Shown piece by piece: positions 48,263-49,089 of a stretch of DNA of 64,000 bases (its first letter is position 1; each line of letters opens with the position of its first letter). A program made the position numbers and the translations under genes. The DNA comes from Isurus oxyrinchus (lineage: Eukaryota), in the NCBI GenBank assembly GCA_026770705.1, contig JANJGN010000015.1, positions 16,430,001-16,494,000 on the forward strand, read 5' to 3'. The notes under the pieces are model-generated. The model made no database searches. It had not been told where the DNA came from and worked only from the letters and a program-made list of their open reading frames with translations.

Positions 48263-48805
48263 GTTTTCCACAAATAGCCGTTTACTGATGAACCCAGAAA
48301 AAGCTCGCAATTTGCACCAAGGGTTATGACTTGGGGGTAGGAGAAGAAGTGGATGAACTTTTATTAATGTACCATCGAGCGGAAAAGTGAAAAGTATATT
48401 CAATGTAAAATACTCTTTCTCCCAAGACACATTCCATTACTTCTATTTTAAAAAAATAACACGTGGGACTTAGCCAGCCAGCCGTACTTCTGATGGATTG
48501 TGAAAGGCTGGGGGATTGCAATGCAAACAGGTCTGATGTTTCATTATAGCAACCAGAGACATGTGGACCCCATTTTAACTCCGTGGAAGTGAATGGGTTT
48601 TGAATGGATTTAAATTTCAGCCTCAATGTGTGAGAGATCAGCTTTTCAACAGACAAAGGGTTCATCCTCTGTCAAGACAATTCAAATAGAAATATTTACT
48701 TGTAGATTACAGTGCAGGACAAAAGAACTCTTGGCAGCTGGAAGACTACTCTATCCTGATCCTGATTTGGAATTAACATAGTTGGACATTTAGCTCCTTC
48801 CTCAC

Positions 48806-49035
48806 AAAAACAGAAGTACCTGGAAAAACTCAGCAGGTCTGACAGCATCGGCAGAGAAGAAAAGAGTTGACGTTTCGAGTCCTCGTGACCCTTCGACAGA
48901 ACTAGTTCTGTCGAAGCATCATGAGGACTCGAAACGTCAACTCTTTTCTTCTCCGCCGATGCTGCCAGACCTGCTGAGTTTTTCCAGGTAATTCTGTTTT
49001 TGTTTTGGATTTCCAGCATCCGCAGTTTTTTTGTT
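48806..49035. mobile_element. Fold-back (palindromic) PLE mini-element
   Basis: Arms of about 98 bp centred at cagaact|agttctg (48903/48904); 17-bp TSD TTTAGCTCCTTCCTCAC at 48789..48805 and 49036..49052. Confidence 0.9.
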
Positions 49036-49089
49036 TTTAGCTCCTTCCTCACCCTATATAGAGTATCTGTAATTGGATAAATGTGACTC

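Follow-up and report, generated by a model that had tools for sequence, protein, structure and literature searches.

The fold-back insertions found in the 64-kb stretch of DNA analysed here (the window), which is part of a 4.98-Gb genome, are short head-to-head 3′-end insertions of an endonuclease-bearing Penelope-like element (PLE), each probably a dead-end product newly formed on landing by twin target-primed reverse transcription that would run off the 5′ end of the RNA and leave two cDNAs to be joined end to end. Two parts of this reading, which we draw from sequence, can be graded on their own: twin priming in which each strand has a single start site appears highly probable, and run-off at the RNA start is held with more modest confidence. 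Throughout, positions in the element are numbered on the coding strand with C3 of the hammerhead core as +1. The 5′ strand of helix I then occupies -3..0, the predicted cleavage falls after +31, and the 3′ end lies at about +97-99 when untailed and at about +130-132 when tailed.

The window holds three fold-backs, all of which are head-to-head pairs of PLE ends with a tail on one arm of each. A preliminary description of the window had reported them with target-site duplications (TSDs) of 12, 17 and 13 bp and with a symmetry axis in or beside a hammerhead-like motif. Both observations are borne out: the duplications are exact, and the paired arms end at +7/+9 (insertion at 26536), -3/-3 (48806) and +6/-1 (53503). 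The 48806 insertion is bounded by a 17-bp TSD at 48789..48805 (plus strand) that is repeated exactly at 49036..49052 (plus strand), and the first 4 nt of the TSD also match the end of the tail. Its untailed arm (48806..48903, minus strand) extends from about +95 to -3, the first base of helix I, and its tailed arm (48904..49035, plus strand) from -3 through the tail, with the symmetry axis at 48903/48904. A minimal hammerhead motif, recognised by eye from published PLE examples (PMC4209133), occupies 48904..48942 on the plus strand, with core C3 at 48908 and predicted cleavage at 48938/48939; it has U at core position 6 and a mismatched stem II. The tail itself (49006..49035, plus strand) would represent the ~30-34 nt between two reverse-transcription start sites, as suggested by the two classes of 3′ end and by in vitro work on another PLE (PMC11167929). 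The two arms differ at 6 of 98 positions, and the whole unit folds as a single hairpin (z = -23 against 200 shuffles).

The second fold-back (53490..53742) consists of an element at 53503-53729 between 13-bp TSDs at 53490-53502 and 53730-53742, and its arms overlap by 3 nt (53591-53593). The third and older one (26524..26808) has its element at 26536-26796 and 12-bp TSDs beginning at 26524 and 26797; a 44-nt tandem duplication lies in its tailed arm, and neither arm has an intact core. The untailed arms 48806-48903 and 53503-53593 have in common an A-to-C change near +84 that is absent from their tailed partners. This change is not among the variants occurring at least three times in 67 sampled young arms.

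The preliminary description had raised misassembly of the palindromes as an objection to its own reading. We consider an assembly artefact unlikely because the arms differ, TSDs are present, and exact tight fold-back junctions of many kinds occur 4,051 times genome-wide (a reversed-pattern control gave 0). The empty-site check gave a consistent answer for the 53503 insertion, where contigs of the DNA runs X20 and X22 join 53489 to 53730 with one TSD copy. Long pieces from these two runs diverge from the window by ~2-4%, and the runs may therefore represent close species. At 48806, contigs of X19, X21 and X22 enter the element by 20-24 nt, which is under the 31-letter threshold and therefore suggestive, and no contig among these three runs bridges the axis. 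Summed contig depth along the element was also tried as a copy number and was rejected, as it does not measure copy number.

Single arms and longer copies accompany the fold-backs in the window. As previously described, two single arms end just past the motif: a tailed arm at 5033..5183 (minus strand) ends near -15, and an untailed arm at 50335, lying within another repeat and carrying a 9-bp TSD (50326..50456, minus strand), ends near -17. We looked for a TSD around the 5033 arm and found none. Two long copies, absent from the preliminary description, pass the motif by ~1,300 nt and 500 nt, respectively. The first is a 5′-truncated parent copy at 17035..~18455 (minus strand, left end approximate) with an untailed end, 3′ UTR, CX4CX2C linker and a GIY-YIG domain that scores above the Pfam cut-off; the second is a 600-bp 5′-truncated copy of an older subfamily at 33545..34145 (minus strand), which passes the ribozyme.

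The parent of these stumps has the hallmarks of an EN+ PLE. A single 865-aa ORF (L256) encodes a reverse transcriptase (RVT_1, E 6.5e-08, above the Pfam cut-off) together with a GIY-YIG domain at the C terminus (E 8e-04, just below it). The tandem, pLTR-bearing arrangement is also present, with three motifs ~3.35 kb apart in L256-L257 and pairs of motifs in L258 and L259, as are the insertion features of EN+ PLEs, namely an optional 30-40 bp tail, an inverted truncated copy and a TSD. The ~3.35-kb tandem units of L256-L257 contain long open frames, and some of their tail variants recur in stumps, among them L195, L205, L230 and L244. Parent ORFs carry a CX4CX2C motif in the linker between reverse transcriptase and endonuclease, and a CX2-5CxxC motif at this place, upstream of GIY-YIG, is a mark of Neptune/Nematis elements (PMC8557442). 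The parent carries this mark and is putatively of that type. A Pfam search of three frames of a decayed copy (L082) gave no match.

The conserved hammerhead core has the sequence CUGANGA, with A6 usually described as invariant. The youngest and most abundant subfamilies of this element read CUGUYGA, with U at position 6, and so depart from that core; older subfamilies retain A6. Read by eye, the motif has a 4-bp helix I, a 5-bp helix II with one G-U pair, GAAA and a palindromic 15.2-16.2 (ACGU), and on comparison with published examples it fits the minimal type-I hammerhead layout of a putative ribozyme (PMC4209133). It resembles the hammerheads of metazoan PLEs in its short helix I, in an unpaired base between 9 and 10.1 and in the palindrome, but differs from them in that the young family has the altered position 6 and shows no sign of cleavage-defined ends (PMC4209133). 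In Schistosoma, hammerhead motifs likewise occur as opposite-strand pairs 100-700 bp apart (PMC4209133). An Rfam scan of the window returned no hammerhead match at E <= 5, and in a single minimum-energy fold the parent region had a z of -0.09 against shuffles, with no helix upstream of -19. In retrozymes the terminal repeats are direct and their hammerheads point the same way; the arms here are inverted, and we rejected this identity.

We mapped arm ends in a genome sample of 160 evenly spaced 10-kb stretches from contigs C1-C26 (1.6 Mb in total) and used exact-pattern counts alongside. The sample contained 194 arms, comprising 32 inverted pairs (64 arms) and 130 single arms, and removal of 12 edge-cut and 101 older or very short arms left 81 young arms as the breakpoint set. 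A first search was biased towards a variant with C for G at +10, and its 30 loci do not enter any breakpoint statistic; the absence of this variant from their partner arms is uninformative because the search had selected for it. Apparent ends near -1340 mark the end of the reference ruler and were counted as long, and the coordinates of long arms are approximate (L154 switches class under a different ruler).

Breakpoints are strongly non-uniform, and the clustering near the motif that had been claimed from the window extends to the genome. Among young arms that reach +10, 26 of 63 end within -20..+10, compared with 6 of 37 in the next 100 nt upstream, a 9.6-fold higher stop rate per base (p = 4e-17). 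This roughly tenfold peak falls mostly at 0..-9, the 5′ edge of helix I, and single arms behave likewise. An exact 24-mer pattern identified 82,096 arms genome-wide. We read the first 100 listed of these by eye, all of them within the initial 4.3 Mb of C1, and scored microhomology as templated: 10 end at +10..+1, 28 at 0..-9, 3 at -10..-20 and 5 at -21..-45, and 54 are longer. Contrary to the preliminary description, the stop is not fixed: those 54 arms run well past it, and 31 of the 81 young arms extend >150 nt upstream. In six long inverted pairs (L025, L061, L084, L154, L169 and L171) the summed upstream reaches amount to 1,200-1,470 nt, perhaps by chance or through a limit on total length.

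The two classes of 3′ end are combined in a regular way. In 30 of the 32 sampled pairs a tailed arm faces an untailed one (p = 1.2e-7 against a model of independent arms), single arms being tailed in 51 of 121 cases. Both exceptional pairs are tail/tail and continue into the ORF start, so that one of the tails is internal. In a junction-selected set, each of 15 loci has one tail. The arms also differ in upstream reach, the tailed arm stopping >10 nt before its partner in 15 pairs, reaching further in 4 and ending within 10 nt of it in 11 (p = 0.02). Short inverted units of 130-300 bp number 24 in the 1.6 Mb (~15 per Mb), which corresponds to an estimated ~75,000 genome-wide if the sample is representative.

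These data allow us to propose a mechanism. The endonuclease would nick both target strands 12-17 bp apart; one target 3′ end would then prime at the tail-less site (+97-99) and the other ~34 nt downstream (+130-132), with both primings probably on the same RNA and the tail-primed enzyme trailing. An RNA start at A(-3/-4), with a TATA-like box 29-32 nt upstream of it, would let both cDNAs end after 100-135 nt. The two cDNAs would be joined bluntly, by 1-5 nt of microhomology or with short templated inserts, and loss of one of them would yield a single arm. Longer upstream templates, arising from tandem read-through or template jumps, would yield long arms; the arms that pass the stop, and so require another template, make up 40-55%. 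Stumps have no TATA-like box and no ORF start and are therefore predicted to be unable to move again. In LINE-1 twin priming the second target strand primes a second cDNA, the junction shows short microhomology and the arms copy different parts of the RNA. Here, in contrast, a single stretch is copied into both arms, beginning at two fixed internal points.

Twin priming by a dimer would be expected to leave the rule read from the genome, a single start on each strand. In vitro, the purified protein of an anole PLE, Poseidon PAc, nicks and extends both strands from two start sites that bound the tail, and it needs the first 172 nt of the ORF and can dispense with ribozyme cleavage (PMC11167929). 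Two tail-bounding starts, extension on both strands and ends independent of cleavage are likewise what we read from the genome here. The anole element differs in belonging to another clade, and in that study start-site use showed no strand difference, pairing within one event lay outside its scope and the text did not connect the two starts with inverted products or with one of each per event (PMC11167929).

Several features indicate that the stop spot likely marks the RNA start at A(-3/-4). Among the 65 long copies with a placeable motif, 62 have a TATA-like word 29-32 nt ahead of A(-3), these copies being related and not independent, and we take the bases around -3/-4 to resemble an initiator. 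TATA- and Inr-like motifs are found in rotifer pLTRs (PMC3846280). Against such a start, the Drosophila virilis promoter is internal and TATA-less, with a start further upstream (PMC2377424). At 303 pattern matches, copying has gone as far as -4 and then begun again at +6 via a 3-nt direct repeat, for varying lengths, as expected at a template end. Pairs show such slips, and so do single arms directly flanked by their TSDs (three clear cases among the 20 examined, L236-L255), and the 11-nt re-copying may be a telomerase-like realignment or a templated repair insertion. Host polymerase theta could also generate slips of this kind. At L192 (399-1579) copying stopped near -4, restarted ~1 kb into the ORF and stopped near -4 a second time. 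Jumps from about -4 into the ORF start region are seen at L003:1501-1886, L192:399-1579 and L143:53-3336, and L003 and L143 begin just past the tail, as if blocked there. Also against an RNA start here, genome-wide pattern counts gave no excess of C after -3, the trace that a copied cap might leave (1,594, versus 2,016 for G with a non-parental base after it).

A more specific version of the mechanism can be offered tentatively. The stumps may be integrated strong-stop cDNAs, for which a dimer would prime the two strands at opposite ends of the tail; the RNA would start at the first hammerhead base, full-length copying would need a jump at the 5′ end, and there the reverse transcriptase, a relative of telomerase, would slip back on a 3-nt repeat and re-copy the 11-nt unit, a telomerase-like realignment that would account for the pattern at ~300 loci. 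With the RNA start at the first hammerhead base, the pLTR would act like U3-R-U5.

Twin priming could also operate with a stop that is set by RNA processing or by a protein bound at a 3′ splice site (AG at -3/-2), an arrangement we regard as unlikely. In several subfamilies the stop site consists of a run of pyrimidines with AG after it, and in older subfamilies, where tract and AG stand right before helix I, it has the look of a splice acceptor. The PLE intron of Drosophila virilis extends up to the 5′ end of helix I (PMC4209133), and the lack of a cap signature also suits a processed end. The commonest young subfamily, however, has a broken tract (pyrimidine share 0.6) and still peaks, and many stops include bases upstream of the AG. 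By eye, 0 of the 46 truncated arms among the 100 listed continue into an upstream exon.

The preliminary description had pictured each unit as the fold-back of one cDNA. A model of this type has been put forward for rotifer elements (PMC3846280, PMC8557442): a single cDNA would fold back and serve as its own template, with one tail trimmed later by the endonuclease. Some of our observations agree with it. Microhomology is present at many junctions, and both arms have variants in common at 8 of 15 junction-selected loci and therefore derive from one source copy, a pattern that could also reflect copying of one cDNA or conversion between arms. Trimming of the first-made arm would, moreover, also yield one tail per pair, on the arm of shorter reach. 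Against a fold-back of one cDNA, the tailed arm is the one to end earlier in 15 of the 19 pairs that could be decided, and among 50 listed tight junctions 13 form perfect palindromes with no loop. Several long pairs are joined without overlap, single arms share the stop location, and both ends arise in vitro as reverse-transcription start sites (PMC11167929). We therefore consider self-priming distinctly improbable for these units.

The preliminary description had further taken the ribozyme region as the stopping point; the ribozyme might halt reverse transcription through self-cleavage or its fold. The peak does lie at the motif edge in both young and older copies, and older diverged arms (L031-L190) have extra apparent 5′ ends at +24..+41, which may be alignment loss or cleavage-defined ends (A6 subfamilies). 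It falls on the 5′ margin of helix I, however, where the motif has already been copied through, whereas a structural stall would be expected 3′ of the helix, and position 6 of the young core is U. No stop peak stands out at the cleavage site (+31) in genome-wide pattern counts: 90,808 arms have C, G or T as the next base (G in 100 of 100 listed), and in 916 arms the next base is A, C or T. Among 100 listed of these 916 non-G arms, ~22 are true stops at +32, which scales to ~200 of ~91,700 arms; ~0.2-0.3% of arms would therefore end at the cleavage site, a background rate. A ribozyme-imposed stop is thus very unlikely.

That the hairpins form a non-autonomous element, transcribed and re-inserted as a unit, is the least credible proposal: the hairpin is very stable and some junctions recur, one two-step junction making up 54 of 100 listed slip-pattern matches, but 9 loci with that junction (among 20 retrieved) split 6 to 3 in which arm bears the tail and 4 have different arm-shared variants, loci with the same variants carry different junctions, and L192 and L194 combine one junction type with opposite tail polarity. 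Copies with an identical junction thus share neither a fixed polarity nor private variants, as would suit junctions that are re-made at each insertion.

The structure itself is already known. Adineta vaga Pen2a and its relatives have head-to-head inverted pLTRs, a palindromic or overlapping junction, a 30-40 bp tail on one side, a TSD around the unit and TATA-/Inr-like pLTR motifs, features that recur in the system described here, and self-priming was proposed for them (PMC3846280, PMC8557442). In contrast to Pen2a, the units described here consist of two end pieces only (130-300 bp), with junctions piled at the first bases of helix I; the passages of those accounts that favour self-priming report no such junction position (PMC3846280, PMC8557442). 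How PLEs come to insert in tandem and inverted form is described as still undefined (PMC8557442). In the PLE literature on twin priming, strong-stop products and template jumps, where coverage is thin for subscription and older Penelope papers, we found neither this stop position nor the rule of one tail per pair in any title or abstract. With minimal insertions numbering tens of thousands, the genome provides a natural record. It favours twin priming in which each strand has its own start site, speaks against cleavage by the ribozyme as the maker of ends in this PLE family and indicates a single base at which the RNA would start. Formation of dsRNA is physically sound in view of the 48806 fold, and the inverted units may be a large source of it when host transcripts read through them.

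Other features of the window lie beside or between the PLE copies. An intact 313-aa frame with a MARVEL domain (Pfam), which we take to be MYADM-like, occupies 5407-6348 on the minus strand, and the single arm at 5033 lies ~220 bp downstream of it. A 145-base run of N is present at 35289-35433. At 58656-58801 (minus strand) there is a weak match to U2 snRNA, under the gathering score, which is probably a retrocopy. Inverted 1.8-kb pieces of LTR-retrotransposon pol lie at 11247-13026 and 18775-20547 and are 71% alike, and the long PLE copy at 17035 adjoins one of the two.
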